Shown in pieces: positions 2,259-36,071 of a DNA stretch of 64,000 nt. Source of the stretch: Bacteroidota bacterium (GTDB lineage Bacteria > Bacteroidota > Bacteroidia > NS11-12g > UBA955); NCBI GenBank assembly GCA_027621365.1, contig JAQCBH010000005.1:54658-118657 (forward strand), read 5' to 3'. The notes under the pieces were generated by a model that did not search any database, was not told the origin of the DNA, and saw only the letters and a list, made by a program, of their open reading frames with translations. Numbering within the stretch: the first letter of the stretch is position 1; each line of letters opens with the position of its first letter. Both the position numbers and the translations under genes were made by a program.

Positions 2259-2960
2259 TTAAAACAGCAACCCGAACTGCAAGGCCCAGGTTGAAATGCG
2301 CAGCCCATTACCTGTCACGGGCGCCAAACCTTCTAAGGCAAAATTGTCATTCAAGTCGTTGATGCCCACGTTTAGGGACCATTGAATTCCTGTTGAATTC
2401 CCGCGGGTTTGGTAGCCCAAATGCAGGGCGGTTTCTATGGGCTTTAAGGGAAGGTTTTCCCACTGGTCTAGAAAGATATCGGCTTGAGCAGGTATGCGGT
2501 TGGGGCCTTTGAAAATCACAGAGCGGAAATTCAATGAGGTTACCGCCCCCACCTGGAAGCATCGGTACTGGTCCTTGACCTTGGGCTTCAAGCGAATGTT
2601 TATCAATACGGGGGCATCCAAACTGATAAGGGAGATACGGGTGTACGCCGAATTGATGACGGTATCGGTGGGGCGGGCATTGGCAAAATTGCTACCTCGA
2701 AGGCGCAGGTCAAGGCCCAATTGGGGGTCCCACTTGCGCTTCAGCGTGGCATCACCGTGCCAAAAAAAGCCGGTTTGGTAACCGAGCAAGGGCCTGGGGT
2801 TGCGCAACTCCCCTCCATACATGCTGTTGAGGCCAATGCCCATCTTGAGTCCAAAATTTTGGCGCTTTTCCCATTCTCGGTCCACACTGGCATCTTGGGC
2901 GAGCCCGAGGCGGCAGCCGAGGGCGCTCCATGCGATCAGTATGACGAGGCGTAGGTTCAT
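2259..2960 (-). CDS. Outer-membrane beta-barrel protein (PorT/OmpA-like small barrel family). The start was re-placed at MNLRLVILIAW.
   Basis: Signal peptide MNLRLVILIAWSALGCRLGLAQ. Alternating amphipathic beta-strands rich in G/Y/N. The C-terminal aromatic residue (…FGLLF) is typical of OM barrels. Confidence 0.6.
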   Translation of the reverse strand: MNLRLVILIAWSALGCRLGLAQDASVDREWEKRQNFGLKMGIGLNSMYGGELRNPRPLLGYQTGFFWHGDATLKRKWDPQLGLDLRLRGSNFANARPTDTVINSAYTRISLISLDAPVLINIRLKPKVKDQYRCFQVGAVTSLNFRSVIFKGPNRIPAQADIFLDQWENLPLKPIETALHLGYQTRGNSTGIQWSLNVGINDLNDNFALEGLAPVTGNGLRISTWALQFGLLF

Positions 2961-2961
2961 G

Positions 2962-4800
2962 CTACAGTTTTTTTCCTTTGAGGGCTTCAGAAACCGCGAT
3001 GTCCATGATGCGCTCGGCAAATGGCTTAGTCACCTCATTCAAAGCCTCAATGGAAGCTAGCAATCGGTTGCGATCTCCTTGTGACAATAGACCCCTTAAC
3101 TCATCGCATCGTTGCCGCGTGACCTGAATTTCTTCAGTCGACAAATGTTGATCATGCTTTTCCAAGAAGCGCTCGGTGGCATACAAAATTTGTTGAGCTT
3201 CGTTTTGAGCCTCTGTCAGCATGCGTTCTTCCAAATCGCTTTGAGCATGTTGCATGCTCTCCAACAAACGCTTTTCGACTTCTGAATCGGTCAATCCGTA
3301 TTGGGACTTGACTTCAATACTTTGCTCCATTCCACTTCGCAATTCTTTGGCACTCACTTGGAGCAAACCGTTGGCATCGATGGCAAAACTGATTTGAATT
3401 TTGGGCAAACCGGCGGGCATGGCTGGAATTCCAGAGAGAACAAACTCTCCCAACTTCCGGTTGTGTAGCACCGATTCGCGTTCGCCTTGGAATACGGCAA
3501 TTTTCAGGTTCACCTGACCGTCGACCGAAGTAGTGTATTCCCGGGCCAAACGGGTCGGGATCTTGCTGTTTCGGGGAATGATGACATCCATCAAATTTCC
3601 AGCTGTCTCAATTCCCAATGACAAAGGCGTAACATCCAGAAGAAGGACATCGGTTCTATTTCCGGCCAACACATCGGCTTCGATGGCTGCCCCTAGAGCG
3701 ACTACCTCATCGGGATTCACTTCGCTGTTCACTCGGCAGTGATCAAATCGCTTTGCCAATTGGCGGGCAATTTCCGGGAATCGAGTACTTCCACCAACCA
3801 AAACGACTTCATCGATATCGGTTTCAACCAGTTCACTCAAGGACAAGGCTTTGTCTACCGATTTCCAGGTGGTTTGCATCCACGGTTCTGCCAGTTCACA
3901 CAACTGGGCGTAATTCAGCTCCAAGCTGACATCGGCATTGAATTCTGCCGAAAAAAGACTTTCTGCATCTCGACTCAACTGCATTTTGGCTCGTTCGGCT
4001 ATGTGTTGCAAGCGTATGCCATTGTCTATGCCCTGAAGAGAATGTTCTGCCATCCACCATTGAGCAATTCGAAGATCCAAATCATCTCCGCCCAATGCAG
4101 TATCTCCGTGAGTAGCCAGCACTTCAAACACCCCATCTTCCAAGTGGAGTATGCTCACATCAAAGGTTCCACCCCCTAAGTCATAGACCAATATGGTGCG
4201 GGATTCGGTACCGATATTCAACCCGTAAGCCAAACTTGCCGCGGTTGGCTCATTCACTATGCGCAAAACCTCCAAGCCAGCCAATTTTCCGGCATCCCGA
4301 GTGGCTTGACGCTGGGAATCATTGAAGTAGGCAGGCACCGTGATCACTGCCTTACTGACCGACTGACCCAAAGCCCCTTCGGCCTTTCGCTTGAGTTCTT
4401 TCAAAATCAAGGAAGACAGGTGAATGGGATCGTAGTAGCGACCATCGACCTCTACTTGAACCAAGGCTTCTTCACTGGTTTCCACCAAGCGGTAACCCCA
4501 GTATTTTTGAACATCTTGAGCGCTCTTTCCAAGCAATCGCTTCACGCTTCGCACGCAGCGCTCAGGCTGGGACTCCAAAGCTTCCCAGGCCCTTTTACCT
4601 ACCAATGGTTCTGCCCCGTTTTCGGGGAAAAACAAAACCGAGGGGGTTAATCGACCCTCAGCAGATTCCAAAATTTGGGGATCCCGCTCTCCCGATGGCA
4701 CCCAAGCCACCAAACTGTTGGTAGTTCCCAAATCAATCCCCAAAACCGGTTCCGACTTCGACAACGACCCTTGCTTGATATTAATGCTTATTTTGGCCAT
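2962..4800 (-). CDS. Hsp70-family chaperone (DnaK/HscA-like). The start was placed at MAKISINIK.
   Basis: IDLGTTNS (phosphate-1 motif). [12 protein letters not shown] (phosphate-2 motif). Substrate-binding and lid domains. About 612 aa. Confidence 0.85.
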
Positions 4801-4812: not shown

Positions 4813-4911
4813 CTCCAGGCAAACGGAACCCACGAATGCAGAACCCGAAACCCCACGGGGCGTTTGACAATTTTATGACGAGTCAAAAACGAGCCTGCCC
4901 GAGGCCTAGAG

Positions 4912-4919
4912 TACCTTTG
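4912..4919 (+). promoter_or_regulatory. Putative -7 box (TACCTTTG) 7 nt upstream of the ATG at 4927. It is the right arm of the inverted repeat.
   Basis: GAGTACCTTTGtagcgccATG. Matches TAnnTTTG. Confidence 0.3.
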
Positions 4920-4926
4920 TAGCGCC

Positions 4927-6219
4927 ATGAGTCGCAGCCTAAATAAAATCGCTAAACTTCTTTTTTTCATATCCATAATAGCCTCACAAACAAAGGCTTA
5001 TGGGCAGTTGATCGTCGACAGCGTTACGTTGGGCTTGAATTTTTCCAATGAAGTTTTCTATTCCTTGAGCAAAGGCGAAACCAAAGCAAGTGGAATCTCA
5101 GATTGGGACATGGCTCATACGACGGTATCGCGAGACAATTGCTTGCGCTTGAATCACGTGAAAGGCTGGGAGCTTCGCCAATACCCCAATGGAAGCATTG
5201 CCGATTGGTCAAGCATGGACACCAGCAATTGGAAGTCTTGGCCCATGTATTTCAATTCGCCTGAAAACCATCTATTGGGCGCCTTCAATCGCACCAAAAA
5301 CAGCAAAAACGTATGGGACTTTTCTTGGGGAGTCTACAACCCCAATACCCATGAGGTGGTGGGTGACTCTTTGTTCCTATTGATTAAGGATGGCCAACCC
5401 GTCATGAAATTCTGGCCGGTCGTCCAAAAAATCAATGGCGACCTGATCTTTCAAACCCAAACCTTTGATGGTAGACCCGCCAAGAAAGACACCCTTTTGC
5501 AGAGCGTGGCAGGAAAACGCCACCACAAGTACCATTCCTTTGTTCAAGGCCAATTCAATGTGGAGCCTTTAAAAGATGAATGGGACTTGCGGTTCACCCA
5601 GTATGCCGAACCCCGGTGGGATGCGACCCAGAATGTTTGGTATCCCAACATCGTTGTCGGGGTGCAGTCCTCGCCAAGTTTACGGGTGAAGCCGATTGAG
5701 AATCACTCTTGGCAATGGGCCTTGGATTCTTCTTGGTCTTACCAGGGTGCGACTTTCTTTGATCTGAATTCCATTGGATCGAACTGGAAGGCATTGGATA
5801 GCCAATCTCAAACTTGGTCGGTGAAACCCGAGTTGAGTTATTGGTTGGACAACGACAGCACCCAGGCGATTTTTCATTTCCTCAAGTTCGAGGGCGAAAA
5901 CACAGGCAAGATTGTCTTTGAGTTTTGGCCATTGGCCCAGACCTTGAACCTTATTGAACCCAAAACTCTAGACATGGCCAAGGCCTTCCCTAACCCAGTT
6001 TTGGATCAATTGATCGTTCCTATTTCTTCCCTTGAAGCGGCCGAATTGACCCTTTTCAACAGCCAAGGCCAATGCGTTGCGCGTTCCGGACAAATCACTC
6101 TTAAAAATGGCTCAGCTCCCATCATTGCTATGCCTATCCAGCACCTACCGAGTGGTAGGTATGTGCTAAAAATTGCCCAAAACGGTCAAGTTTACAGCCA
6201 AACCATCATCAAGCTTTGA
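4927..6219 (+). CDS. Secreted HmuY-like protein carrying a T9SS C-terminal sorting domain.
   Basis: Sec signal KLLFFISIIASQTKAYGQ. WDMAH and WDLRF motifs. The C-terminal ~80 aa (…RYVLKIAQNGQVYSQTIIKL) is a typical Por-secretion tail. The stop overlaps the receptor's start by 4 bp. Confidence 0.7.
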   Translation: MSRSLNKIAKLLFFISIIASQTKAYGQLIVDSVTLGLNFSNEVFYSLSKGETKASGISDWDMAHTTVSRDNCLRLNHVKGWELRQYPNGSIADWSSMDTSNWKSWPMYFNSPENHLLGAFNRTKNSKNVWDFSWGVYNPNTHEVVGDSLFLLIKDGQPVMKFWPVVQKINGDLIFQTQTFDGRPAKKDTLLQSVAGKRHHKYHSFVQGQFNVEPLKDEWDLRFTQYAEPRWDATQNVWYPNIVVGVQSSPSLRVKPIENHSWQWALDSSWSYQGATFFDLNSIGSNWKALDSQSQTWSVKPELSYWLDNDSTQAIFHFLKFEGENTGKIVFEFWPLAQTLNLIEPKTLDMAKAFPNPVLDQLIVPISSLEAAELTLFNSQGQCVARSGQITLKNGSAPIIAMPIQHLPSGRYVLKIAQNGQVYSQTIIKL

Positions 6220-8510
6220 GACGCCTTCGATTGCTTTTGCTTCTGACGGCCTTGGGGCTGCCCTTGGCCATTTTTGGACAACCCAAATTTGTGGAGAAGC
6301 GCGCGGCCAGTGACAGCAGCTTGCAATTGAACATCGTCAATTCTCAAGGGCAAGTTGTGGGTCTTTGCCAAGTAACGGTTCATCCCCTGGGCAACCCACA
6401 GAGTTATTGGTTTCAAACCGACAGCTTGAGCCAGGTTCGCATTCCCCATATGCTGCCTAGCGAGATTGAAGTCGTTCCTCAGAATCTAGCCTATCTCAAT
6501 CAGCTTTTTACGGTAGAAACCGTTCCAGCAGAGGGCGAGATTACCCTGACCTTAACCAAAAGAGACGAACGCATTGACCCCATTTCCATCACAGGGGCCG
6601 TCAACCCGCAGGCCATCAGCAAAACCCTGTATTCGGTCGAGGTCATCTCCTCCAAGAAAATTGCCGCTATGGGCGCCCAGAGCGTGGATGCAGTTCTCCA
6701 AAATCAATCCAACATCAACATTACACAAGATGCTGTACTAGGCAGCAGGGTTCAGTTGCAGGGCATGAGCGGAGCAGACGTCAAAATTCTCATTGACGGC
6801 GTCCCCATGATTGGCCGATTGAACGGCAACATCGATTTGTCTCAAATCCCCACCCACCAAATCGATCGCATTGAAATCGTCGAAGGCCCCATGAGTGTCA
6901 TTTACGGATCAGATGCCATCGGCGGTTTGATCAACATCATTTCCAAAAAGCCCGATCAACCCGGTCTGCATTTGGACGCCCACGCCTATGGCAATAGCGT
7001 CGGATGGAGAAACTTTGATGCGAGTGGGCAATGGAGGTACAAGAATTGGGGCATTTCTGGATTTGCGGGACGTCAGTTTTCGTATGGTTATGATATGGAC
7101 CCTAGTACCCGATTGATAGACTGGAGACCCAAGACTAAAATTTTCAGCGGGGCCCAGCTCCAATACCGAGCCGACAAGGCCGAACACCAATGGAAAGTTC
7201 AGCATTTCTATGAAAAGTTGACCGACCGCAGCAATGCTGAATCCAATTTGACCTCGGTTGGCGGCTACACCAACTACTACTACACTGAACGACTGGATTT
7301 CAGTCACAACAGCTTGATTCACTTGGGCCCAAACTGCGATTTGAATTGGCAAAACAGCGCCAATTTTTACAACCGCGACAAGGTTTCTTATTGGAGAAAT
7401 TTGGTGACAGGAAAACAAAACCTAACAGGCCCAGAAGACCAGGACACTACCCTTAACAGGCAGTTGAATAGCCGTGCCATCTTAGGTTCAAGAGGCAGCC
7501 ACCGATTGAATTGGCTTACCGGGTATGAGGCCAATGCTGAGACCTTGAGCAGCCACCGCATCAAAGGCCTTTCGCCGCTTTATTCCATAGCCCTGTTTGC
7601 CAGTGCAGAATGGCACATTCGCTCTTGGTGGCAAATTCGACCATCTGCCCGATGGGCACTCAACAATCAATTTGGCCGAGCCCTATCCAGCGAATCTCCG
7701 TGGAACATCTCCCCGTTCATCCCTTCTATTCAAAGCAAATGGCAAATCAGTCCCCATTTGACCTTGCGAGGATCAGCTGCCAAAGCTTTCCGAGCTCCCA
7801 GTTTGAAAGAGTTGTACTTCTTGTTTGTCGACATCAACCATAACATTCACGGCAACACTCAACTTCAACCCGAGTTGAGCGACAATTACACGGCCACCAT
7901 CGAATACCGCCATTCTTTTGCCAGTGGCTTAGGGGCCGTTTTCAAGACCAACTGGTTCTACAACAACGTAGACAATCGCATTGAACTGGCGCTCTTGGAC
8001 CAGCGATACAACTATTACCAGTACATCAACATAGGCAAACTTCAAACCCAGGGTCTCACTCCTCAATTTGAATACTACGGAGCAAATTGGAGCACCAAGT
8101 TGTCCGGCACTTGGGTGAGGTCGCAGATTCAAATAGATACCAGTAGCCAGCAACAGGGCTGGAATTCTGTTCAGGCCGTTTGGAACCTGGAGTACAATTG
8201 GCCTTCGCCAGACATTAGTGCCAACGTCTACACCAAATTCAATGGCCAACAACGCGGATTTTACTCCAACGGCAGCACCTACTCTATTGAGCAATTCTCC
8301 ATGGTCGATGTTGTCTTGGCCAAAACTTGGCAATGGCAAGCAGGTCAACAGCTTATTCCCATTTCCGTGCAACTGGGCTGCAACAACGCTCTAGGTGTTC
8401 GCCGAATTGGCGCGGTAGGCCTATTCAGCACTCCTCACAATACTGCGTCACAAAATCTCAATATTTCTCCTGGCCGCTCTCTCTTCTTGGCCCTTAAGGT
8501 AACTTTGTAA
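6216..8510 (+). CDS. TonB-dependent outer-membrane receptor (plug plus barrel), possibly heme-type.
   Basis: Signal peptide. Plug motif DRIEIVEGPMSVIYGSDAIGGLINIISKK. About 760 aa, rich in beta-strands. Ends in an aromatic-rich barrel (…LALKVTL). Confidence 0.9.
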   Translation: MRRLRLLLLLTALGLPLAIFGQPKFVEKRAASDSSLQLNIVNSQGQVVGLCQVTVHPLGNPQSYWFQTDSLSQVRIPHMLPSEIEVVPQNLAYLNQLFTVETVPAEGEITLTLTKRDERIDPISITGAVNPQAISKTLYSVEVISSKKIAAMGAQSVDAVLQNQSNINITQDAVLGSRVQLQGMSGADVKILIDGVPMIGRLNGNIDLSQIPTHQIDRIEIVEGPMSVIYGSDAIGGLINIISKKPDQPGLHLDAHAYGNSVGWRNFDASGQWRYKNWGISGFAGRQFSYGYDMDPSTRLIDWRPKTKIFSGAQLQYRADKAEHQWKVQHFYEKLTDRSNAESNLTSVGGYTNYYYTERLDFSHNSLIHLGPNCDLNWQNSANFYNRDKVSYWRNLVTGKQNLTGPEDQDTTLNRQLNSRAILGSRGSHRLNWLTGYEANAETLSSHRIKGLSPLYSIALFASAEWHIRSWWQIRPSARWALNNQFGRALSSESPWNISPFIPSIQSKWQISPHLTLRGSAAKAFRAPSLKELYFLFVDINHNIHGNTQLQPELSDNYTATIEYRHSFASGLGAVFKTNWFYNNVDNRIELALLDQRYNYYQYINIGKLQTQGLTPQFEYYGANWSTKLSGTWVRSQIQIDTSSQQQGWNSVQAVWNLEYNWPSPDISANVYTKFNGQQRGFYSNGSTYSIEQFSMVDVVLAKTWQWQAGQQLIPISVQLGCNNALGVRRIGAVGLFSTPHNTASQNLNISPGRSLFLALKVTL

Positions 8511-8517
8511 GCCCATT

Positions 8518-9555
8518 GTGAAGCGCACATCCCTATTCATTTTCTGGAGTTTTTTAAGCCTAGTTTCATGGTCCCTGACCGCCTGTGAAAAAGAGGAACC
8601 CCTGTATCCTCAACCTCAGGTTCCTGCTGGCCTGCAAACCCGTGAATTTGCGATGGGTGAAAATTATGAAAACCAGATTTGGTTTCATTTTGGCTCTCAA
8701 ACGGGCAGCAGCAATGCCTTCGGCTTGTGGGACATCGCCTTTGCTTGCGATTCCAAACCCCACCTCATCATCAACGGCGGCAAAAACCAGGCCTTTAGCT
8801 TGGCCTCTTTCCCCAATCTGGAATACGGTCAAGTGGACCAGGACCAACTGACCAATGCGAATTGGGCCATCGACGTGCTCAATGGCAACCAAGATTCCCT
8901 CGCCTTCGGCGATCCCTTCCAATACGAATCTCCGGGGCATTACTCGGCTCAATCAGCTGTCTATGTATTGGATCGTGGCGATGATAGCTTGGGCACCCAA
9001 CGATACATTAAAATTCAATTGACGGGCTACAGAGCCGGTGTTTACAGCTTTCGCTGGGGCTACCTCCAAGAAACTACTCCCCGGTTCACCACCTACATGA
9101 AGGTGAATGAGGAAAAAAACTACGTTTACTACTCGTTCGCCAAGAAAAACGACGTGCAAAACGAGCCCCTCCACAAGTCGGCTTGGGATATCGTCTTTAC
9201 GACTTACAAAGAACCTGTACCCGAACCCGGAACTGGCATTTTGTATCCCTATGTTTTGCGCGGGGTTCTGATCAACCCCACCCATTTGCAAGTGTGCGAA
9301 GTAGGACCAGAAACCCCCTTTGAAGCCATGAATTTGGACAAAGCCAAATCCTTGAACTTCAGCCGCAAGTTGAATGAAATTGGTTACGATTGGAAAGCAT
9401 ATGACCAAGGCACCAACCAGTACACCATCGTGCCCAACAAGTACTTTGTCATTCGCGACGTCACTGGCAACTACTTTAAAATTAAATTTGTGAGCTTTTA
9501 TAACGACCAGGGCATCAAGGGTTTTCCGAAAATGGCCTGGGAATATTTAAAATGA
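8518..9555 (+). CDS. HmuY-like lipoprotein.
   Basis: Lipobox LTAC. WDIAF and WDIVF motifs. C-terminal YFKIKFVSFY. Lies immediately downstream of the TonB-dependent receptor. Confidence 0.6.
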   Translation: MKRTSLFIFWSFLSLVSWSLTACEKEEPLYPQPQVPAGLQTREFAMGENYENQIWFHFGSQTGSSNAFGLWDIAFACDSKPHLIINGGKNQAFSLASFPNLEYGQVDQDQLTNANWAIDVLNGNQDSLAFGDPFQYESPGHYSAQSAVYVLDRGDDSLGTQRYIKIQLTGYRAGVYSFRWGYLQETTPRFTTYMKVNEEKNYVYYSFAKKNDVQNEPLHKSAWDIVFTTYKEPVPEPGTGILYPYVLRGVLINPTHLQVCEVGPETPFEAMNLDKAKSLNFSRKLNEIGYDWKAYDQGTNQYTIVPNKYFVIRDVTGNYFKIKFVSFYNDQGIKGFPKMAWEYLK

Positions 9556-10634
9556 AACATTCCATCCTTTCCATCTTGAGCTTGTTGGGCATCACTGCCC
9601 TATCGGCCCAAAGCGCTGCGGTAAACGAAGGCCAGCATTTGAAAAACTTGCGCCAACTCACATTGGGCGGCGACAATGCTGAAGCCTATTTCAGTTTCGA
9701 CGGCCAAAAGCTTGTCTTTCAAAGCAATTACAAGGAATGGGGCTTAGAATGCGACCAAATTTTTTACAGCCCTATTGAATCTTTGGGGCTGCACACTGAT
9801 GAGAGCACTGGGCAATCAGTCGGCCCTGAGAAGCCCATGATGGTTTCTACTGGCATGGGACGCACCACTTGCTCCTATTTCATGCCCGGAGATGAGCTCA
9901 TGCTGTATGCCTCTACCCATGAGGGCGGCAGAGACTGTCCTCCTGTGCCTGAATCACACGGTCGCTACGTATGGCCTGTTTACGAAACCTTTGATATCTA
10001 TGTGACCGACGTTCAGGGCAACATTGTCAAAAAACTCACCGATGAGCCCGGTTACGACGCCGAGGCGACAGTTTCTCCAGACGGCCAGTCGATCGTCTTC
10101 ACTTCTACGCGAAGTGGCGATTTGGAACTTTGGATCATGGACATCGACGGTTCCAATCTGCGTCAAATCACCTCCGGCTTGGGCTATGATGGCGGGGCCT
10201 TCTTCTCTCCCGATTCCAAGCAGTTGGTATTCCGTGCTTCACGCCCCAACACGCCCGAAGACAGCGCCCATTACGTCGACCTATTGAAACAAGGTCTTGT
10301 TGAGCCCACCAACATGGAAATCTATACGGTGAATGTAGACGGATCTGATTTGAAGCAAATCACCCATTTGGGCAAAGCCAACTGGGCTCCTTTCTTCCAC
10401 CCTTCGCAAGAGAAAATTATTTTCTCATCGAATCACCATAGCGACCGAGGATACGACTTTCAGTTGTACATGATTGGTACAGATGGAACGGGTTTGGAGC
10501 AAATCACGGGTGAGAGCATTTTTAACGCATTCCCGATGTTCTCCCCCGACGGAACAAAATTGGTATTTTCGAGCAACCGCAACAACGGTGGAACCCGCGA
10601 TACCAATCTGTTCATTGCCGATTGGGTTGACTAA
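9552..10634 (+). CDS. Periplasmic PD40/TolB-like WD40-type beta-propeller protein.
   Basis: Signal peptide. Repeated PDG-x-x-[IL]-[VA]F-x-S motifs (SPDGQSIVFTSTRSGDLELW, SPDSKQLVF, SPDGTKLVFSS). 4-bp overlap with the upstream gene. Confidence 0.8.
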   Translation: MKHSILSILSLLGITALSAQSAAVNEGQHLKNLRQLTLGGDNAEAYFSFDGQKLVFQSNYKEWGLECDQIFYSPIESLGLHTDESTGQSVGPEKPMMVSTGMGRTTCSYFMPGDELMLYASTHEGGRDCPPVPESHGRYVWPVYETFDIYVTDVQGNIVKKLTDEPGYDAEATVSPDGQSIVFTSTRSGDLELWIMDIDGSNLRQITSGLGYDGGAFFSPDSKQLVFRASRPNTPEDSAHYVDLLKQGLVEPTNMEIYTVNVDGSDLKQITHLGKANWAPFFHPSQEKIIFSSNHHSDRGYDFQLYMIGTDGTGLEQITGESIFNAFPMFSPDGTKLVFSSNRNNGGTRDTNLFIADWVD

Positions 10635-10659
10635 TTCCTAGCTTGGGCGGGGCCCTGCC

Positions 10660-11379
10660 ATGCTCATCAAAACCGAAGCCCTCGTCTTGCACAAAGTGCC
10701 GCACAGCGATCACTCTGCGGTGGTTAAGCTATTCACCAAAGAATGCGGACTTCTTTCCTTTCTGGTTCAAGGTCTACACGGCAAACAAAACAAAAACGCT
10801 TATTACCAGCCGGGTCAATTCTTGGAGATTATTTTTCACCGCAAAGCGGGACAAGGGTTGAACCGCATTCGAGAAGTGCAGGCCCTTCATACCGAGTTCA
10901 CCGCTCAAAGTCCGGCCGATCAATTTTGGAGGCAGCAATTGCTTTCTTTCGCTGTTGAGCTGACCAACTTCTGCCTGAGTGAGGAACACTCTGAACCTGA
11001 ATTGTTCGACACCCTATCCTCCAACATTCGATCCTTGGTGCAAGGCGAGATCAACTTGAGTTGGTTCCCCTTGCAACTGTGCCTGGATGTCAGTGAATGT
11101 TTGGGCCAAGGCCTTCCCCTGCGCGAAGCTCAACGAAAAGGGGGACTCGACGTTTGGAACGGACATTTTGGCCAAGCCAATAGTCTCCCGCATCAATGGC
11201 TCAGCGAACGTGATTGTGCCTTGCTATGGGATGCTCAACGCAGCGGTATTTGGGAAGCTCCAAGAGCCGAACGAATAGGAGTGCTAGACAAACTCGTCCT
11301 GCACCTGACGGTTTCCTTTTTCCCTGGAAAAACCTTGAAATCCATTTCCATCATTCGGGAAATGGCCTCGATTCATTAA
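10660..11379 (+). CDS. recO: DNA repair protein RecO.
   Basis: MLIKTEALVLHKVPHSDHSAVVKLFTKECGLLSF matches the RecO N-terminal OB fold. 239 aa. Confidence 0.8.
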   Translation: MLIKTEALVLHKVPHSDHSAVVKLFTKECGLLSFLVQGLHGKQNKNAYYQPGQFLEIIFHRKAGQGLNRIREVQALHTEFTAQSPADQFWRQQLLSFAVELTNFCLSEEHSEPELFDTLSSNIRSLVQGEINLSWFPLQLCLDVSECLGQGLPLREAQRKGGLDVWNGHFGQANSLPHQWLSERDCALLWDAQRSGIWEAPRAERIGVLDKLVLHLTVSFFPGKTLKSISIIREMASIH

Positions 11380-12480: not shown

Positions 12481-13746
12481 ATGCAGATATTTAAGTTTGG
12501 TGGGGCATCCGTGAAGGATGCTGAAGGTGTTCGAAACGTAGCTCAAATCATTGAGAATTATAGCCAATCGAATGTATTGGTGGTGATTTCTGCGATGGGA
12601 AAGAGCACCAATGCGCTCGAAAAAATCATTCATGCCTCTTTCTATAATGATGGAAAATTGGCGACCTATGTTACCGAATTTAAACAATACCACGACCAGA
12701 TATTGAGCGATTTGTTTCCCGCCGAACATTTGTTTGGCCGCATCGACGTTCAAAATCTCTATTTGGAATTGGAATGCGCCATCGACAATGCCAACTTGAA
12801 GCACGACTATGACTTCTACTATGACCAAATCATAGGCTTCGGGGAATTGATATCCACTCGCATCGTGTCGGCCTATTTGCTATTCAGCGGATTGAGAAAT
12901 CAGTGGGTTGACTCCCGCAACTTCATTTTGACAGACGATCGCTACCGCGATGCGAAAGTCATGTGGGAACAAACCTCGACCGTGATCGGCAACCGCCTAA
13001 AACCACTGTCGGAAAAGAATTTGGTTATTGCTCAGGGATTCATAGGAAAAGGTCCAAATGGAGAAAACACTACCTTGGGTAGAGAAGGCTCCGATTACAG
13101 TGCTGCCATCTTTGCCAGACTTTTGGAGGCCCAATCGGTTACCATTTGGAAAGATGTTCCAGGTGTGATGAATGCCGATCCCAAGAAATTTGCCCATCCC
13201 GTCTTGCTCAAGGAACTTTCCTACGAGGACGCAATTGAACTGGCGTACTATGGAGCTTCCGTCATTCACCCAAAGACCATTCAACCGCTTCAAGCGGCCG
13301 GTATACCCTTGTATGTGAGAAGTTTCTCCCACCCAGAAATGGAGGGCACACGAGTCACTCGAGAATCAACTGGTCTGACCCAGGCCTGCTTGATTCACAA
13401 ATCGAACCAAACGCTCCTGCAGTTTTCTACCCGCAATTTGACTTTCATCGCTGAAACCCAGTTGATGCAATTATTCACTTTGTTCAACGCCCTGAAGATT
13501 CGTTTGAATTTGATGCAAAATTCGGCAACCCATTTTACCTGCGTGATCGATTTTCAAGAATCTCGTTTGGAGAGCTTGAAAGCCGAATTGGATAGTCTAG
13601 AGATGGAGCTCTCTGTTCAGCCAGAATTAGAAATGATCAGCATTTACCAACCTGAGCCTGGAATTGAGGCTCAACTTCCGGACGCAAGTACGTGGGTGCT
13701 CAAGCAGCAAACCGATCGCTCCACCCATTACGTGATCCGACCTTAA
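12481..13746 (+). CDS. lysC: Aspartate kinase.
   Basis: MQIFKFGGASVKDAEG…VLVVISAMGKSTNAL is the amino-acid kinase fold. C-terminal ACT domains. 421 aa. Confidence 0.85.
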   Translation: MQIFKFGGASVKDAEGVRNVAQIIENYSQSNVLVVISAMGKSTNALEKIIHASFYNDGKLATYVTEFKQYHDQILSDLFPAEHLFGRIDVQNLYLELECAIDNANLKHDYDFYYDQIIGFGELISTRIVSAYLLFSGLRNQWVDSRNFILTDDRYRDAKVMWEQTSTVIGNRLKPLSEKNLVIAQGFIGKGPNGENTTLGREGSDYSAAIFARLLEAQSVTIWKDVPGVMNADPKKFAHPVLLKELSYEDAIELAYYGASVIHPKTIQPLQAAGIPLYVRSFSHPEMEGTRVTRESTGLTQACLIHKSNQTLLQFSTRNLTFIAETQLMQLFTLFNALKIRLNLMQNSATHFTCVIDFQESRLESLKAELDSLEMELSVQPELEMISIYQPEPGIEAQLPDASTWVLKQQTDRSTHYVIRP

Positions 13747-13760
13747 ATTCATCAGGCATA

Positions 13761-13793
13761 AAAAAAGGGCTCCTTCGGGAGCCCTTTTTTATT
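13761..13793. terminator. Bidirectional rho-independent terminator between convergent lysC and the giant adhesin gene.
   Basis: AAAAAAAGGGCTCC-TTCG-GGAGCCCTTTTTTAT is a perfect 8-bp GC stem with a tetraloop, an A-tract on one side and a T-tract on the other. Confidence 0.8.
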
Positions 13794-13808
13794 TCATCAT
13801 TGATTCAA

Positions 13809-16800
13809 TCAACGATTGATGATCAATTTTTGTGTTTGTACTTCGGTTCCTTGGATTACACGCACAGTGTACATTCCAGGAGCAACCTGAGACAAGTCAA
13901 GGGTTTGACGACCAAAGCCGTTTTCTACACCGTTCAACTGGTACACTACTGCACCCAAAGCATTGATGACGGAAATGTCGGCTTTTTGCTGAGCAATGCC
14001 CTTCCACACCAAGGTAACCTCACCTCGTGTTGGGTTGGGCTGAACAGTCAAATGACCTTTCGCGTTAGCCTCTTCAACTCCCATGTAAGTATTGAAACAG
14101 TTGGGGGGGTATTCCACGTACACCTCACGTACCACCAAGTTCGATTGGTTGCCGCTAGGATCAGTCACTTGATAAGTGATGCTGTACACTCCGCTCTGCC
14201 AAATGTTTACATTGTGGGTAACCACCTCAACCAAAGGCATCAAATCGGTAGCCGAATAGTAGTTGTCGCGAACCTGAATACCACTAATGGCCCAGAAAGG
14301 TGTACCTACACAAGCACTCACAACAGGAGCTACGAGCTCAGGCGCTTTGCGGTCTACTACCTTTACGAAACGTGATTTGGTGGTTGAATTTCCACTCTCG
14401 TCAATGGCGGTATAAGACTCTTCATACATACCCAAAGTGTAAACATCAACAGAACCTGACTTGGTCACAGAAATCTGAGACAAGGGGTAGTAGTTGTCGC
14501 TCACCGTCACGCTGCGAGAAGAGTACGGAGTCATGACATCGTGCAAAATGGTATCGCTGGTGTTCAACTCGATGTTGGGGGCGATGAAATCATCAACGCG
14601 GTAATTGATCGTATAGCCATCTTCATCGGCTGCGTTTCCGCTAGGATCTTTGGCCTTGTAAGTGATGGGGTAAGTTGCGCGAATCTGCGTATTTACCTGA
14701 CCATTGAATCCTGGGTTCTTGCTCAAGAAGATGGAACCATTGCAGTCGTCCATGGCGTAAACCTCATCAACAAAAGGAGACTTGATCTGCACATCGATGG
14801 TAGCTCCATCGGTGATGCGCTGATTCAAACGGTAAATACCGGGCTTCTTGGTGTCGCGCACTTGAACCAAACGAGTGGCGGTTGCGGTGTTTCCTTGAGC
14901 ATCCTTCACGGTATATACCAAGGTATAATCACCCACAGTGCTAGCATCAACACTACCAGAAATTTGAATGGCCGAGGTCAAGTTGCCATCTACGGCATCG
15001 TTGGCCACTGCACCCAATTCGCTGTAGGTATCGCATTGCTCCATGGTAATGGTGGTATTTCCATTCAAAGTCAACACAGGAGCGGTACGGTCGAGAACGA
15101 CGATTACGGTACGAGTGCGTTGCTCTGCTTTGTTACCAGAAGCGTCTTCTACATCGAAGGTGATGCTGTACACACCTGGAACCGTGCAATCCAAATCGCT
15201 ATTCACTACCACCAATGAAGTCATATCGCCTTCGGTAGGATCATTAGCAGAGTACGTAGAATTGGCCACTTCGGCATAGCAAGAAGTCTTGCTGGAACCG
15301 CGCTCCACACGAATCGTATCGCTTCCCACCAAACGGAAAGTAGGCACAGTCATGTCGTTGGCCAATTTCAGCAAATAATCTTCGTACTCACCTACTTGGT
15401 TGACACCACATGGCGTATTTGAGAAATTCGAGAATGAAGCAGCCACACGCAAGCGGGTCAAACCTTCAAAACTCTGGCTCAATTTGGGAACCTTAACGGA
15501 AGCGCTCGCGCTAGTACCCGTCATGCTTCCAGTGCTCATCACTTCCTCACCTGCATCGTTGAAATCACCATCAATGTTCCAGTCAACCCAAGCTTTGTAA
15601 TTCACAGGGTTAGAGTTCGACAAGCGAGTAACAGTCAAATCATAAGTAGAACCAAAGGTCAATACAGCGGGGTATTTGGTTTCAGCATAGCTGGTGTAAG
15701 CCGCTTGACCACCATCTGTATTGCTGTTGATCAACTTCACGCCATTGCTATTTTCCAAGGTCACTGTATTGATCGCCACGTCGGCTGACATCATGCTAAC
15801 CAAAGGTGTGCAGTAATCCAGCACAATCACATACTTGTTCTTGATCAACTTCTTCTGAGTAGCAGAATCGCCACCTACAGAATTCCAAGCCTTCAAGGTA
15901 AAGGTGTACGCACCGCCCTTCAAGAACTTGATCTGAGGGTTCTGGCTAGAAGCGCTAGTACCATTCATGTAAGTGAACGAAGTGGGGAAAATGTTTGACT
16001 CGAATTTGTTGGCGTAGTCAGTCTTTGTCGTAAAGCTCACAACATCCAACACATTGGGGCGCACATTGTCAGCCGTGTAATCCAGTGCACCGGGCTTAGT
16101 TGGCGTCAAGATGGTCACATTGTCGCAGAAGGTATCGTTGCCGTTACAGGTCTGGGCCACCAAACAAACCTCGTAAGTTCCGTCTGTTGAGAAGAACTCC
16201 GTGTAAGATTCGCCGGTACCTGCAACGTTCTGATCCACCCACCACTCGTAGGTAGGAGCTCCTTCGGTTTGAGTCGAAGCGTTGGCAAAGGTCACGGCCA
16301 TGCTATTGGCAGCAGGATTGTAATCAGTTGTCCACTTTGCATTGGGAGGCAAGGCAGGGCCCAATTTGCTCTTCCAATTCAAAATGAATCCTTTGTCGTT
16401 GCCAGAACCGTTGGTTTCGAACGTGATGTAACCCGCACCGCTGGTCAACACGATATCAGTTGTATCCCAGTAAGCCTGGTTGGTGGAAGTGATACCTTCT
16501 GTTGGAGTTACTTCCTTTGAAGGATCAGCTTCAGTAGCATCGTAGATGCGAATTTTATCACCGGCATCCTTCAATACCAATTCCTCAAAACTCAAGGTGA
16601 TTTTCTCAGCACCGCAAGGAAGAATTTTGAAGTAGTCAATAGAGGGCTTACGGTTATCGCCGTAATTGGCGGTTGGACCTCCATTATCAAACAAAGTACC
16701 GTTTTTGCTGTTGCCTTCTTTGCTGGGGCCCATGTAGAACTCAGTAGCTGAGGTACATTCGATGTATTTGCTCTTGCAAGTAGTGGTAGAGGGCCCGATA

Positions 16801-17840
16801 TCGTTTTCAGAAGTCAAGCAGACCTTGTACCATCCAAATTCATTCAGAGTGAAAATGGGATTCTGATCAGTGGCCGTTTGGTCGTCTGCCCCTGTGGGAG
16901 AGTACAATTCCCAACTCCATTTGTAGGCGCCGTTGTCGCTCAAATCAAACAACTGTACATTGTAGTATTGCTCTACTTCATTCAAATCAGAAATAAAATC
17001 AGCATTAGGAGCAGCCGTAGGAGCCACAATTTTCACTGTATTTACAGCAGAATCTTTGTCTCCACAGTAGTCAACCATCAACTTTACATCATAAGTTCCC
17101 GCATTATTCCATGAGGCAATGCCCTTAACGGCATTATTGGAAACGATGGTTGACGCCTGGTCGAAGGTCCAATTGTAGGTCCAGTTTCCGCCGCCGCCTG
17201 CTGTGAAGACAGTAGGAGACTTTACATAACTGGTACCCGTAGGAACAGAAAAAGTCGCGGTTGGCTTGGTGACATTCAAGATATTCACCTCAAAGTCCAT
17301 GATGTTACCATAATTGTTCAGTGTTCCACAACCCTGTGAGGTCGAGAACGTGCTATACAAGCAACGAACACGCAAAATGGCAGTACCCGCGCTCTGATTG
17401 CCACAGGGAATTTTAATTTTCACCGTCTTGTTTTGGTAGGCAGCAATCCGTCCAAATGGGCCTGAAGGACCTGAAATACACTCGGTGGTTTGAAAGTTAT
17501 TGTCGCGATTCAAATCCAACCATACTCCGGCCCATTCCGCATAGGAACAACCGTTGGAGATGTACATTTCAATCTCCTCGCCTGGAGTGATGTCGATGCA
17601 GGGACCGCTGGTCATCAATTTGTTGGTTGCGCCAGTGTTGCCACAGGTCAAACCCGAGAAGGAGGCTACCTGCCCCTTGCTGTTTTTGATGGTCACGGCA
17701 TCGAACCAGTCGATGCTGCAACCGTAGGAGTTCGTTGCCGCGCAAATTTGAGCCTGAGCAGCATGCCCGAATCCCCAGGTGGAGGCCAACAAAAGCCCAG
17801 CCTTCCAACCCAAGTTTTTAAGCGTTTTAGTGAATTTCAT
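13809..17840 (-). CDS. Giant secreted adhesin-like protein (about 1343 aa). It has an N-terminal Cys-rich GEVED-like domain, PKD/Ig-like and multiple HYR-like repeats, and a T9SS C-terminal sorting domain.
   Basis: Signal peptide. N-terminal region has 10 or more Cys and YGNIMDFEV. Repeated D-x-x-GN-x-A-x-x-x-R-x-V-x-V-x-D-x-x-x-P units (ASGNKAEQRTRTVIVVLDRTAPV, AQGNTATATRLVQVRDTKKP, ESGNSTTKSRFVKVVDRKAPE). C-terminus …YTVRVIQGTEVQTQKLIINR. Confidence 0.8.
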   Translation of the reverse strand: MKFTKTLKNLGWKAGLLLASTWGFGHAAQAQICAATNSYGCSIDWFDAVTIKNSKGQVASFSGLTCGNTGATNKLMTSGPCIDITPGEEIEMYISNGCSYAEWAGVWLDLNRDNNFQTTECISGPSGPFGRIAAYQNKTVKIKIPCGNQSAGTAILRVRCLYSTFSTSQGCGTLNNYGNIMDFEVNILNVTKPTATFSVPTGTSYVKSPTVFTAGGGGNWTYNWTFDQASTIVSNNAVKGIASWNNAGTYDVKLMVDYCGDKDSAVNTVKIVAPTAAPNADFISDLNEVEQYYNVQLFDLSDNGAYKWSWELYSPTGADDQTATDQNPIFTLNEFGWYKVCLTSENDIGPSTTTCKSKYIECTSATEFYMGPSKEGNSKNGTLFDNGGPTANYGDNRKPSIDYFKILPCGAEKITLSFEELVLKDAGDKIRIYDATEADPSKEVTPTEGITSTNQAYWDTTDIVLTSGAGYITFETNGSGNDKGFILNWKSKLGPALPPNAKWTTDYNPAANSMAVTFANASTQTEGAPTYEWWVDQNVAGTGESYTEFFSTDGTYEVCLVAQTCNGNDTFCDNVTILTPTKPGALDYTADNVRPNVLDVVSFTTKTDYANKFESNIFPTSFTYMNGTSASSQNPQIKFLKGGAYTFTLKAWNSVGGDSATQKKLIKNKYVIVLDYCTPLVSMMSADVAINTVTLENSNGVKLINSNTDGGQAAYTSYAETKYPAVLTFGSTYDLTVTRLSNSNPVNYKAWVDWNIDGDFNDAGEEVMSTGSMTGTSASASVKVPKLSQSFEGLTRLRVAASFSNFSNTPCGVNQVGEYEDYLLKLANDMTVPTFRLVGSDTIRVERGSSKTSCYAEVANSTYSANDPTEGDMTSLVVVNSDLDCTVPGVYSITFDVEDASGNKAEQRTRTVIVVLDRTAPVLTLNGNTTITMEQCDTYSELGAVANDAVDGNLTSAIQISGSVDASTVGDYTLVYTVKDAQGNTATATRLVQVRDTKKPGIYRLNQRITDGATIDVQIKSPFVDEVYAMDDCNGSIFLSKNPGFNGQVNTQIRATYPITYKAKDPSGNAADEDGYTINYRVDDFIAPNIELNTSDTILHDVMTPYSSRSVTVSDNYYPLSQISVTKSGSVDVYTLGMYEESYTAIDESGNSTTKSRFVKVVDRKAPELVAPVVSACVGTPFWAISGIQVRDNYYSATDLMPLVEVVTHNVNIWQSGVYSITYQVTDPSGNQSNLVVREVYVEYPPNCFNTYMGVEEANAKGHLTVQPNPTRGEVTLVWKGIAQQKADISVINALGAVVYQLNGVENGFGRQTLDLSQVAPGMYTVRVIQGTEVQTQKLIINR

Positions 17841-34109: not shown

Positions 34110-36071
34110 ATGGCCTCGCTCCTTTCCGTTTTGCATCGCCGCCTCGCTGCGCTCGGCGTCACCGCCCTTCTGTTCAGCACCGCCTTTTCCCAAACCTATA
34201 AACTAGGCACTCAAAAAGCCGACCGCGACCCCATCCCTGCGATTCAGGTTGAGCATCCCGAAGTGGACATTGTGCGCGATTTGCAAACGCCCTTGTGGCA
34301 TGTGTTTGACCCCCGCTTGGCCCCCGATGCATTTTTGGAACCCCAAGGCAAAGAAGGCGAAATGCCTCTACCCGAAGGCATCAACGAGGAGCTGCGAAAG
34401 AAAATTGACGCCCGCCGAGAAGCCAGCCTTCGCGGCCGCGAACTCTACAACCAAGACCCCACTCCAGCCGCCGACATTGCCCCCGTTGAACTCGAAGGTT
34501 TCGAGACAGGCGGCGGTGGAGGGACTCCCAATGACAACCACGTAGCAGTCGGCAAGGACGGCTCATTTGTGAGCGTCATGAACACCGTGATTCGCGTCTG
34601 GTCACCCGATGGCACTCTGAAAAAAGCATGGACTCTGATCAACTACAGCAAGGTCAACCCCAATGTAGACGATATTCCTACCCTGACTCGCGTTTATGAC
34701 CCACGGGTGATGTACGACCCTGAAGCCGATCGCTGGATGATCGTGTACATGCACGGCACCACCGACGTCAGCAGTTTCATTGTGGTGGGTTTCAGTACCA
34801 GTTCTGACCCTACCCAACCCTGGAACGTTTACAAAATCGACGGCAGCCCTACCGCTGATACTGCTTGGAGCGATTACCCGATCGTTTCTCAGACCTCCAA
34901 AGACTTATTTTTCACGGTCAACCTGTTGCTCAACGGTACTTCTTGGGAAGAAGGATTTCGCGAAGCAGTCATCTGGCAACTCAACAAGGCCGATGGTTAC
35001 GCCGGCAAGCCCCTGAACCAAAACCTGTTCAGAGGCATCAAATACGAGGGTGTGAGCATTTGGAGCATTTGCGCCATTCAGAACGGCCCTCAACCCACAG
35101 GCACTGACAATTATTTCATGAGCGTTCGCCCATACAGCGAACAAAACGACACTGTGTTTTTGCACCGCATCACCAACTCTTGGGAAAGCGGAAAGGCCGA
35201 ATACGAACTGCAGGTCATGCGCAGCGATCTCCCCTACGGATTTCCGCCTTCAGCCCTGCAACCCCAAGACGGCTTCAAACTCAGAACCAACGACGCCCGG
35301 GTGCTATCTGGAGTTCGCATCGGCAACCAGATTCACTACGGTCAAAACTGCATGAACTTCCAAACCCAGCAGGCACACCTCTTGCACGGAGTGATTTACG
35401 GACTGGATGAAACCCCCTTCATTCAAGCTCGACTGGTCACCCACGATAGCTTGGAATTCGGTTATCCTGCCTTCGCGGCCGCTGGAGATTCGGACCAGGA
35501 TCCCTCGGTTGCCATTTCTTTGGTATACAGCAGCCAATGGCACTTTCCCGGTGCTGGATTCTTGTACTGCAACCGCACCGGTGAATACAGCGATTACACC
35601 GTACTTAGAGCCGGAGAATCCATCATCAACTACACCTATATCGCTCCCAATGAACAACGCTGGGGCGATTACGAAGGTCTTCAAATGCAGTACAACAGTC
35701 CCCGCGAGTTTTACTCGGTGGGTTCCTACGGAAAGAAGAACCAAATGCTGGCCTACGTGGCTCGAGTCAATCTGATCGATAAAGTATTGGACCAGCCCGT
35801 TGCCGAGGTGCGTGTTTTCCCCGTTCCCAGTCAAGACCGAAGCCTGCAAATTGAAATCAAAGCCGACAAGCCTGGCCACTACGAGGCTTGGCTTGTGAAT
35901 GCCATTGGCCAAAGTTGGCACAACACCGACATCACCCAAGTTCAATTGGATCTCCCTGCTGGTACTCACCGCTACAAACTCAACACAGAAAACCTTTCAG
36001 CCGGAGTGTACACCCTGCAAATCGAAGGTCCTGAAGGCCCTTTGTACAGCCAAAAAATCGTATTGGAATGA
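34110..36071 (+). CDS. Secreted 653-aa protein of unknown function with a T9SS C-terminal sorting domain.
   Basis: Signal peptide. GGGGG linker. C-terminal ~80 aa (…LSAGVYTLQIEGPEGPLYSQKIVLE) is CTD-like. 4-bp overlap with truB. Confidence 0.7.
   Translation: MASLLSVLHRRLAALGVTALLFSTAFSQTYKLGTQKADRDPIPAIQVEHPEVDIVRDLQTPLWHVFDPRLAPDAFLEPQGKEGEMPLPEGINEELRKKIDARREASLRGRELYNQDPTPAADIAPVELEGFETGGGGGTPNDNHVAVGKDGSFVSVMNTVIRVWSPDGTLKKAWTLINYSKVNPNVDDIPTLTRVYDPRVMYDPEADRWMIVYMHGTTDVSSFIVVGFSTSSDPTQPWNVYKIDGSPTADTAWSDYPIVSQTSKDLFFTVNLLLNGTSWEEGFREAVIWQLNKADGYAGKPLNQNLFRGIKYEGVSIWSICAIQNGPQPTGTDNYFMSVRPYSEQNDTVFLHRITNSWESGKAEYELQVMRSDLPYGFPPSALQPQDGFKLRTNDARVLSGVRIGNQIHYGQNCMNFQTQQAHLLHGVIYGLDETPFIQARLVTHDSLEFGYPAFAAAGDSDQDPSVAISLVYSSQWHFPGAGFLYCNRTGEYSDYTVLRAGESIINYTYIAPNEQRWGDYEGLQMQYNSPREFYSVGSYGKKNQMLAYVARVNLIDKVLDQPVAEVRVFPVPSQDRSLQIEIKADKPGHYEAWLVNAIGQSWHNTDITQVQLDLPAGTHRYKLNTENLSAGVYTLQIEGPEGPLYSQKIVLE

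Follow-up and report, generated by a model that had tools for sequence, protein, structure and literature searches.

To our knowledge, work on the HmuY family has been confined almost entirely to oral and gut anaerobes and has dealt with it solely as a single small lipoprotein. The Hmu system of P. gingivalis encodes an HmuY-fold surface lipoprotein beside a TonB-dependent receptor that carries FRAP, His and NxxL elements. In the HasA/HasR systems of Serratia and Pseudomonas, the cell secretes a haem carrier that passes its load to a TonB-dependent receptor dedicated to it. The surface lipoprotein BtuG of Bacteroides, which lies beside the receptor BtuB, is thought to capture its ligand and pass it to the barrel. 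[quoted passage not shown] In F. psychrophilum, the receptor HfpR is followed by the HmuY-like protein HfpY; the pair is induced when iron is scarce and is required for the use of haem, and HfpY, despite its strong divergence from HmuY, binds haem 1:1 (PMC9331221). The HmuR/HmuY tandem of Tenacibaculum maritimum is a related receptor and HmuY-like locus of the Flavobacteriia (PMC5561996).

The window analysed here, a stretch of 64,000 nucleotides from an uncultured aquatic Bacteroidota bacterium, contains a locus that resembles these systems and differs from each of them. Four open reading frames, all on the + strand in the ORF listing of the window, were considered (g1 to g4). The first three, in the order paralogue, receptor, paralogue, are likely to form an outer-membrane unit for haem capture and import. 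As in the HfpR/HfpY and T. maritimum pairs, the receptor gene is followed by an HmuY-like gene, but the published descriptions of those pairs have a single HmuY-like gene and lack a T9SS-sorted paralogue. Unlike in P. gingivalis, there are two paralogues, each roughly double the size of HmuY and probably composed of two tandem domains, and one of them is predicted T9SS cargo. F. columnare HmuY has the same domain combination as g1, to which we liken it by domains, whereas the F. columnare gene was investigated by itself, with no paired receptor or lipoprotein paralogue described. HasA differs in its unrelated fold, in type I instead of type IX secretion and in having no second membrane-anchored paralogue. 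The earlier note had called a two-haemophore, T9SS-coupled system with a propeller partner undescribed. No paper describing the two-paralogue HmuY-like arrangement was found, and this part of the claim stands; a T9SS-secreted HmuY had already been reported in F. columnare (PMC9618737), and the propeller partner was not retained. The locus is probably an uncharacterised, widespread variant of an already known type of haem uptake, and its arrangement is common in Bacteroidota. Its features are as follows.

4912–4919, + strand: candidate −7 promoter element TAccTTTG, 7 nt 5' of the g1 ATG, matching TAnnTTTG
4927–6219, + strand: g1, 430 aa, start ATG
g1 residues ~1–26: signal peptide
g1 residues ~27–337 (5005–5937, + strand): predicted double HmuY-like body
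g1 residues 338–349: linker, low-confidence
g1 residues 354–430 (5986–6216, + strand): type A T9SS C-terminal sorting domain
6216–8510, + strand: g2, TonB-dependent receptor, 764 aa, start TTG, with a signal peptide
g2 residues ~23–115: N-terminal extension
g2 residues 135–237 (6618–6926, + strand): plug (Pfam Plug, 81 bits)
g2 residues 270–764: barrel (Pfam TonB_dep_Rec_b-barrel, 84 bits)
g2 residues 525–553 (7788–7874, + strand): haem-receptor-type motif FRAPSLKELYFLFVDINHNIHGNTQLQPE with FRAP box, His542 and NxxL box
8518–9555, + strand: g3, 345 aa, start GTG
8584–8586, + strand: Cys23 of the g3 lipobox LTAC, followed by E-K-E-E
g3 residues ~36–186 (8623–9075, + strand): N-terminal HmuY-like half
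g3 residues ~187–345 (9076–9552, + strand): C-terminal HmuY domain
9552–10634, + strand: g4, PD40/TolB-propeller-like protein, 360 aa, start ATG, with a signal peptide and PD40 at 118 bits

Read from the sequence, the junctions comprise a 4-nt overlap of g1 with g2 (cTTTGA), a 7-nt gap between g2 and g3, and a second 4-nt overlap, of g3 with g4 (ATGA). Coordinates and junctions match exactly those of the earlier note, which had described four same-strand genes with two 4-nt overlaps and one 7-nt gap. NCBI places the g2 start five codons downstream (759 aa, MDA0685764.1), which turns the g1/g2 overlap into an 11-nt gap. The module genes would be co-transcribed, and g4 is probably co-transcribed with them. 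recO follows g4 on the same strand after 25 nt, with equally tight spacing. Since close same-strand spacing runs on to recO, spacing by itself is no proof of a functional unit.

The earlier note held that both accessory proteins are HmuY-like, and this was borne out by two different routes. Its proposed search against Pfam PF14064 succeeded for g3 (56.9 bits, cutoff 27) and failed for g1, which gave no match at E<0.1; an NCBIfam scan of g1 for HmuY likewise found none. The link of g1 to the family was therefore made via profiles and predicted fold. Some g1 homologues themselves pass PF14064, and the g1 family aligned to the g3 family in hhalign with an E of 9e-38. The predicted models have the all-beta HmuY fold and match the PDB set of HmuY-family structures. 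On profile-profile comparison and predicted fold, g1 is HmuY-like. The shared WD[IML]xF motifs that the note had pointed out occur twice in each protein, as W60-D-M-A-H and W219-D-L-R-F in g1 and as W71-D-I-A-F and W223-D-I-V-F in g3. The WD(I/M)A(F/L)xxY and C-terminal F(V/T)D(F/Y) strands align with P. gingivalis HmuY.

The two paralogues differ in their sorting signals, both of which had been correctly read before. The g1 C-terminal region scored above cutoff against PF18962 (32.5 bits, cutoff 27) and TIGR04183 (37.2 bits, cutoff 23) and gave fold matches to sorting domains. Together with the N-terminal Sec signal this is the make-up of type A T9SS cargo. Public annotation calls g1 merely "T9SS type A sorting domain-containing protein". 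The lipobox Cys23 of g3 is invariant across 38 homologues, and in 77/77 g3 orthologues a hydrophobic leader precedes an N-terminal Cys. Where a lipobox was matched automatically (65 orthologues), position +3 was K in 55, +4 was D/E in 48 and +5 was D/E in 62. In surface-exposed lipoproteins of Bacteroidota, the export signal is K-(D/E)-(D/E) within a few residues after the lipobox Cys, a consensus from work on Capnocytophaga. The g3 sequence C23-E-K-E-E fits this signal, and the Cys-x-K-(D/E)-(D/E) pattern suggests that g3 is located at the cell surface. PADLOC returned nothing for g1, g3 or g4.

The conserved haem-ligating His and Met residues of HmuY proteins, whose presence the note had proposed to check, appear from the family alignments not to be kept. 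Neither His134/His166 of P. gingivalis HmuY nor the Met/Met scheme of Tfo seems to be conserved here. In the g3 family no His or Met was conserved at ≥60% except Met46 in the N-terminal MGENY motif. The g1 family is mostly Met/Tyr in its MGxGY motif, and the g1 of the window has Leu35/Phe39 at these positions. Because the known His/His or Met/Met ligands appear not to be conserved, we infer haem binding from the other evidence. The same residues favour an alternative in which g1 and g3 kept the HmuY fold and lost ligand binding. They would then form a structural lid or plug on the receptor, or serve it as adhesins, and the duplication would be structural and not a relay. BfrC, a solved HmuY-family member that we take not to bind haem, is in the PDB set matched by both models. 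Deletion of hmuY in F. columnare caused no growth defect in iron-limited medium (PMC9618737). However, both paralogues are widely and strongly conserved beside a haem-type receptor and haem-handling genes, and other residues could ligate haem. Tyr residues 50, 230, 245, 302 and 328 of g3 are invariant or near-invariant, and the g1 family has conserved His at 64, 77, 115 and 142, all in the N-terminal half. HfpY binds haem, with a Soret peak at 398 nm, though it is <26% identical to other HmuY proteins. We therefore regard a loss of binding as very improbable and retain haem as the presumptive ligand.

Relatives were encoded in at least 547 stretches of a collection with one genome per species. 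The receptor gene was followed by g3 in 77/80 species-representative loci, and a g1-type paralogue lay upstream on the same strand in 58/60 loci that had room to see it. The conserved unit is thus the secreted paralogue, the TonB-dependent receptor and the lipoprotein paralogue, and this arrangement is far from chance. Other genes that recur nearby, for an HtrA-like protease, a sigma-70 factor, a DEAD helicase, SOD and an aldehyde dehydrogenase, were rejected as module genes, as they represent lineage-level housekeeping synteny.

The synteny check that the note had proposed in related genomes found the trio in physical linkage with genes of haem handling, namely HemS/ChuX, ChaN and a transporter of PBP, FecCD and ATPase, in 11 distinct genomic contexts. 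These were 10 of the 80 genome loci and Epilithonimonas, and no others were seen. In Acidiluteibacter ferrifornacis (L028) the genes are tightly packed on one strand in the order g1, Peripla_BP_2, FecCD, ABC ATPase, HemS/ChuX (PF05171, 260 bits), receptor, g3, ChaN. HemS was also found inside the cluster in L029, L030, L038, L056 and L078, and ChaN in L023, L041, L053 and L081. Epilithonimonas zeae links the same genes in a different, divergent order, which argues for functional linkage beyond mere inheritance of gene order. HemS/ChuX and ChaN were the sole substrate-informative genes that recurred within the cluster. The gene content differs from that of an hmuYRSTUV-type operon: no large CobN-like hmuS-type gene was found among the scanned ORFs near the module or among the recurrent neighbours in the 80 loci, and the accessory genes, where present, are Peripla_BP_2, FecCD, ABC ATPase, HemS/ChuX and ChaN instead of HmuSTUV. 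In tblastn searches with HemS, ChaN, PBP and ABC ATPase of L028, DUF6607 of L026 and M28 of L041, no match was obtained in the window or in a 21-kb stretch that overlaps the window start and reaches 7.6 kb upstream. A Peripla_BP_2-FecCD pair does occur upstream, outside the window, with its FecCD gene 5.7 kb upstream. This FecCD is 33% identical to the in-cluster one, so the pair was not counted in the module.

As the earlier note had stated, a TonB-dependent receptor lies between the accessory genes; it has Plug and barrel domains. It carries the haem-receptor motif (loop L7), which reads FRAPSLKELYFLFVDINH(542)NIHGNTQLQPE. The FRAP/His/NxxL motif is typical of haem and haemoglobin receptors (PMC9331221). 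His542 was present in 97% of 69 aligned receptor orthologues, in which the FRAP box and the GN(P)xL box were retained as well. The best NCBIfam match among 30 families was TonB-hemin TIGR01785, at 139.8 bits far below its cutoff of 316.85, and g2 scored far under every other NCBIfam cutoff as well. Such scores leave room for another cargo, in which case the HmuY-like proteins would be surface binders of a corrinoid (B12), another tetrapyrrole (protoporphyrin or a chlorophyll breakdown product) or an iron chelate. The B12 model gave 115 bits for g2 against 140 for the hemin model, and the L028 orthologue scored better on B12 (144 bits) than on hemin (114 bits). The best PDB sequence match of g2 was BtuB, the PBP/FecCD transporter type is common to haem, B12 and siderophores, the His/Met ligands are not conserved, and BfrB presumably prefers protoporphyrin. 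However, the BtuB match covers the plug region only, the haem-receptor signature is nearly universal among the orthologues, and the informative genes of the cluster belong to haem-specific families. Rfam gave no match in the whole window at the gathering threshold, nor in the g1 leader at E<1, and riboswitch control, including a B12/cobalamin riboswitch, was rejected on this basis. A cargo other than haem is therefore unlikely.

The earlier note had also included the PD40 propeller in the system, and the data did not support this. g4 scored 123 bits against TolB TIGR02800 (cutoff 343), and its PDB matches were to TolB propeller blades only. It was rejected as TolB on this score and because the protein, at 360 aa, is without the N-terminal alpha/beta domain. 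Its signal peptide is plain, without a lipobox, and in this and in not being a conserved member it differs from the propeller BtuG. As a dedicated periplasmic partner, g4 might receive or process the cargo of the haem receptor in a four-gene system. The 4-nt g3/g4 overlap agrees with this. So does the presence of g4 directly after g3 in 24/70 genomes, which include loci whose g3 is just 28–37% identical to that of the window (L019–L021, L034, L044, L055). Among 58 metagenome loci with close g4 relatives, the trio lay just upstream in 42 to 45, and an M28 peptidase followed g4 or g3 in 6 loci. On the other hand, g4 was missing after g3 in 46/70 genomes and lay on the opposite strand in L058. 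In 13/58 of the metagenome loci the close relatives (64–67% identity) had no trio within 7 kb; the two of these that were annotated had unrelated neighbours, MMPL and MeaB in one and adenine deaminase and UPF0047 in the other. The identity of g4 was 62–75%, against 25–50% for g1–g3, which points to a different, housekeeping-like constraint. recO followed g4 in 44/66 loci, and an argument from spacing would make recO a member too. A dedicated propeller partner is thus distinctly unlikely. g4 is an adjacent gene and not a conserved module member, and the module has three genes, not four, because of the limited adjacency, the high identity, the trio-less relatives and the equally tight recO.

Our preferred reading of the three-gene unit is as follows. 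g1 would be exported by Sec and then by the T9SS, to be released or held at the cell surface, where its double HmuY-like body would capture free haem or haem stripped from proteins. The lipid-anchored paralogue g3, once flipped to the cell surface, would sit on the receptor or next to it and would take haem directly or from g1. The BtuB-BtuG pair offers an analogy for g2 and g3, although BtuG is a B12-binding beta-propeller and not HmuY-like. The receptor g2, with its FRAP-His-NxxL signature, would import haem into the periplasm. From there a PBP/FecCD-type ABC transporter would take it further into the cell, where a cytoplasmic protein of HemS type would deal with it; the genes for both are inside the cluster in some relatives and not in this window. 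g4 would be a separately conserved periplasmic protein that stands beside the unit in this lineage and may share its transcript, as may recO.

More tentatively, and with some doubt, we propose that the paralogues form a two-tier haem relay of a sort not known to have been described. A T9SS-exported two-domain haemophore would scavenge away from the cell and deliver to the lipid-anchored paralogue on the receptor, with a novel ligand chemistry, probably Tyr- or His-based, unlike that of every characterised HmuY. Such a relay would operate in many non-Bacteroidales Bacteroidota, among them Flavobacteriales, Chitinophagales and related freshwater and marine lineages. The tandem-domain body could then hold two haems, or one domain could dock the receptor.

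Haem ranks among the major sources of iron, and in lakes, oceans and habitats associated with fish the Bacteroidota are dominant degraders. In at least several hundred species the double-size, duplicated HmuY form is the common one. [quoted passage not shown] The public annotation of g1 can be corrected on the evidence given here, and the PD40 gene should not travel along as a part of the system.

Regulatory signals were also searched. A sigma-70 promoter scan returned one promoter-like site against 6.3 expected, and a terminator scan between the module genes returned none that was convincing; both scans are uninformative for Bacteroidota. A Fur-box-like operator was not found in the window, where the palindrome of other loci scored just 11/16. 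The element upstream of g1 matches TAnnTTTG, which we take to be the Bacteroidota −7 promoter consensus, and TAnnTTTG was also present 5' of g1 orthologues at many loci.

The four ORFs of the module were found exactly where the earlier note had placed them, all on the + strand; the window is part of a metagenome scaffold from an uncultured Bacteroidota bacterium (ENA ERZ23495192, scaffold_54):

4927-6219, + strand: g1, ORF of 430 aa, HmuY-like with a T9SS sorting domain
6216-8510, + strand: g2, ORF, TonB-dependent receptor (TBDR)
8518-9555, + strand: g3, ORF of 345 aa, HmuY-family lipoprotein
9552-10634, + strand: g4, ORF, PD40 gene

The tight junctions from which a single transcript had been argued were confirmed in the sequence: a 4-nt overlap of g1 with g2, a 7-nt gap between g2 and g3, and an overlap of g3 with g4 at ATGA. 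With the start of g2 in the NCBI annotation of the identical contig, five codons later, the g1/g2 overlap becomes an 11-nt gap. recO is the next gene after g4, on the same strand and only 25 nt away, so reasoning from tight spacing to one unit would take in a DNA-repair gene too.

A search across genomes, one for each species, gave at least 547 stretches that encode relatives; 80 loci were kept. The TBDR gene was followed by g3 in 77 of the 80, and a g1-type gene lay upstream on the same strand in 58 of the 60 loci that extended far enough to show it (directly adjacent in 49); in L066, one of the two exceptions, it lay downstream. The trio of g1, g2 and g3 was carried by Flavobacteriales (Fluviicola, Crocinitomicaceae, Acidiluteibacter), Chitinophagales and many unclassified Bacteroidota. 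Synteny thus upheld the trio but not the propeller, which the earlier note had counted as a member of the system: g4 came after g3 in only 24 of 70 genomes, in one of these on the opposite strand.

As a reverse test, 80 metagenome loci were searched for g4 relatives, and 58 had enough upstream sequence. The trio was next door in 42 to 45 of the 58, and 13 had none within 7 kb. The neighbours of the two annotated among these 13 were unrelated (MMPL and MeaB in L162; adenine deaminase and UPF0047 in L134). The adjacency of g4 and the trio is real and lineage-wide, not obligatory. That g4 is a working partner of the trio would fit this adjacency but is improbable in view of the 24 of 70 genomes and the 13 trio-less relatives, and g4 was treated as a neighbour with its role unassigned. 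Its identity was 62-75% across loci where that of g1-g3 was 25-50%, which indicates a different, stronger constraint. It has a signal peptide and TolB-type propeller blades, lacks the TolB N-terminal domain and scored well under the TolB cutoff. recO followed g4 in 44 of 66 metagenome loci, and the two form a conserved pair (9552-11379 in the window; L085-L164 among the metagenome loci).

g3 scored above the Pfam HmuY cutoff (56.9 bits against 27), whereas g1 had no direct HmuY match in the Pfam scan. The proposal that both are HmuY-like was sustained for g1 through its relationship to g3: BLASTP aligned them at E 5e-10 across 138 residues, and profile-profile comparison of the families gave a probability of 99.95% (E 9e-38, 313 columns). 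Pfam HmuY and Por_Secre_tail occurred together in about 25 distant g1-family members. Judged from these alignments, g1 and g3 are paralogues across their whole bodies, despite the missing direct match.

The proposed sorting signals were also found. g1 passed the cutoff of both T9SS sorting-domain models; with its Sec leader and type A sorting domain it should be secreted or surface-attached via T9SS. The g3 lipobox is LTAC, with Cys23 invariant in 38 homologues, and an N-terminal Cys behind a hydrophobic leader was present in 77 of 77 orthologues. In the 65 of these whose lipobox was matched automatically by pattern, the Cys was followed by x-K-(D/E)-(D/E) (+3 K in 55, +4 D/E in 48, +5 D/E in 62). 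This matches the surface-export signal of Bacteroidota lipoproteins reported from work on Capnocytophaga; from this agreement g3 is predicted to be surface-exposed, as HmuY is.

Conserved haem-ligating residues were also sought. In the g3 family no His is conserved, and Met46, within an N-terminal MGENY motif, is the sole conserved Met; Y50, Y230, Y245, Y302 and Y328 show little or no variation. In the g1 family this motif reads MGPGY (LGLNF in the window's own g1), and His64, His77, His115 and His142 are conserved in the N-terminal half. Both the His/His and the Met/Met schemes of characterised HmuY proteins therefore appear not to be retained in the two families. The 398-nm/623-nm spectrum of HfpY from F. 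psychrophilum is suggestive of Tyr ligation. Although very divergent too, HfpY binds haem in a 1:1 ratio, giving a Soret peak at 398 nm and a further band at 623 nm (PMC9331221). Haem binding by g1 and g3 is plausible.

In the Pfam scan g2 comprised Plug and barrel domains. Its top NCBIfam match was a haem/haemoglobin receptor family (139.8 bits, under the cutoff of 316.85); a B12 model scored close behind and outscored the haem model for the orthologue of Acidiluteibacter ferrifornacis (L028), so family models leave the substrate unsettled. The haem type of the receptor was supported by a FRAP-x13-His-x4-N-x-x-L loop motif retained among 69 aligned orthologues, with the His in 97%. The FRAP/NxxL and His pattern has been described for haem/haemoglobin receptors (PMC9331221).

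The decisive evidence was synteny. In six loci a four-gene insert of Peripla_BP_2, FecCD, ABC ATPase and a HemS/ChuX protein (PF05171, 260 bits; PF06228, 191 bits) lay between g1 and the receptor, and a ChaN haem-binding protein was encoded immediately downstream in five loci. All eight genes lay on one strand, packed with overlaps, in the A. ferrifornacis isolate. The layout differed in Epilithonimonas zeae, where receptor, HmuY lipoprotein, PBP, FecCD, ATPase, methyltransferase and HemS genes shared one strand and the sorting-domain HmuY-like gene was on the opposite strand. That the linkage to haem genes outlasted this rearrangement is good evidence of shared function. Haem is the best-supported cargo because of the linkage to HemS/ChuX and ChaN, with no other substrate-informative gene recurring among the neighbours in the 80 loci and no riboswitch found in the window. 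HemS and ChaN were absent from the window. The nearest PBP-FecCD pair was in flanking sequence beyond the window, about 5.7 kb upstream of g1 (13024-15077 of the overlapping stretch L082). It had no ATPase gene beside it, five housekeeping genes on the other strand stood between it and the module, and its FecCD shared only 33% identity with the FecCD encoded in the L028 cluster.

Other families recurred inside or beside the haem cluster: DUF6607 (PF20311; L026 at 6335-7309, L035, L061) and DUF6686 (PF20391; L030 at 7412-7744, L035, L074, L044), mostly between the g1 and receptor orthologues, with DUF6686 after g3 in L044. Both may represent new accessory proteins of haem uptake. In L021, L041, L044, L053, L058 and L081 a gene directly past the module, downstream of g3 or g4, encodes an M28 peptidase that also has PA and PDZ domains and could possibly release haem from proteins.

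In public annotation g1 is named for its T9SS sorting domain alone, and g4 is labelled hypothetical. Literature on HmuY with T9SS, HemS or Flavobacterium covered the HfpR/HfpY haem system of F. psychrophilum (PMC9331221) and classical single-lipoprotein systems; neither a paralogue-receptor-paralogue trio nor the double-size body was found described there, and in a T9SS effector review HmuY appears only among the references. T9SS secretion of a HmuY-domain protein is known from F. columnare, where its deletion gave no iron phenotype (PMC9618737). The overall interpretation in the earlier note stands as regards the pair of HmuY-like proteins, how they are sorted and the haem type of the receptor; the propeller was wrongly included. 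The trio represents a widespread but uncharacterised variant within a known type of system, and its appeal lies mostly in its breadth, T9SS link and non-canonical ligand residues.

A 17-bp palindrome, TTTAGAATnATTCTAAA, was seen upstream of g1 orthologues, mostly 26-50 nt before the start codon. Matches reached at least 14 of its 16 scored positions in 12 of 60 loci (L002, L003, L026, L028, L030, L037, L038, L040, L056, L065, L073, L075; best in shuffled sequence, 13) and only 11 of 16 in the window's g1 leader. The palindrome may be the operator of a repressor, perhaps one of Fur type. TGAC(A/G) repeats at 4863-4895 of the window (TTGACAATTTTATGACGAGTCAA), with similar ones upstream of g1 in the closest clade (L002-L018), may be the site of a different regulator.

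Two further ORFs had no Pfam match at E<1e-5 (1116 aa, 53222-56572, - strand; 653 aa, 34110-36071, + strand). A 253-aa ORF at 2259-3020 (- strand), also without a Pfam match, was kept beside an HSP70-family gene in 12 related loci. The window encodes another T9SS cargo, of 1343 aa, at 13809-17840 (- strand); it has GEVED, PKD, bacterial Ig-like and Por_Secre_tail domains and looks like a large surface adhesin.
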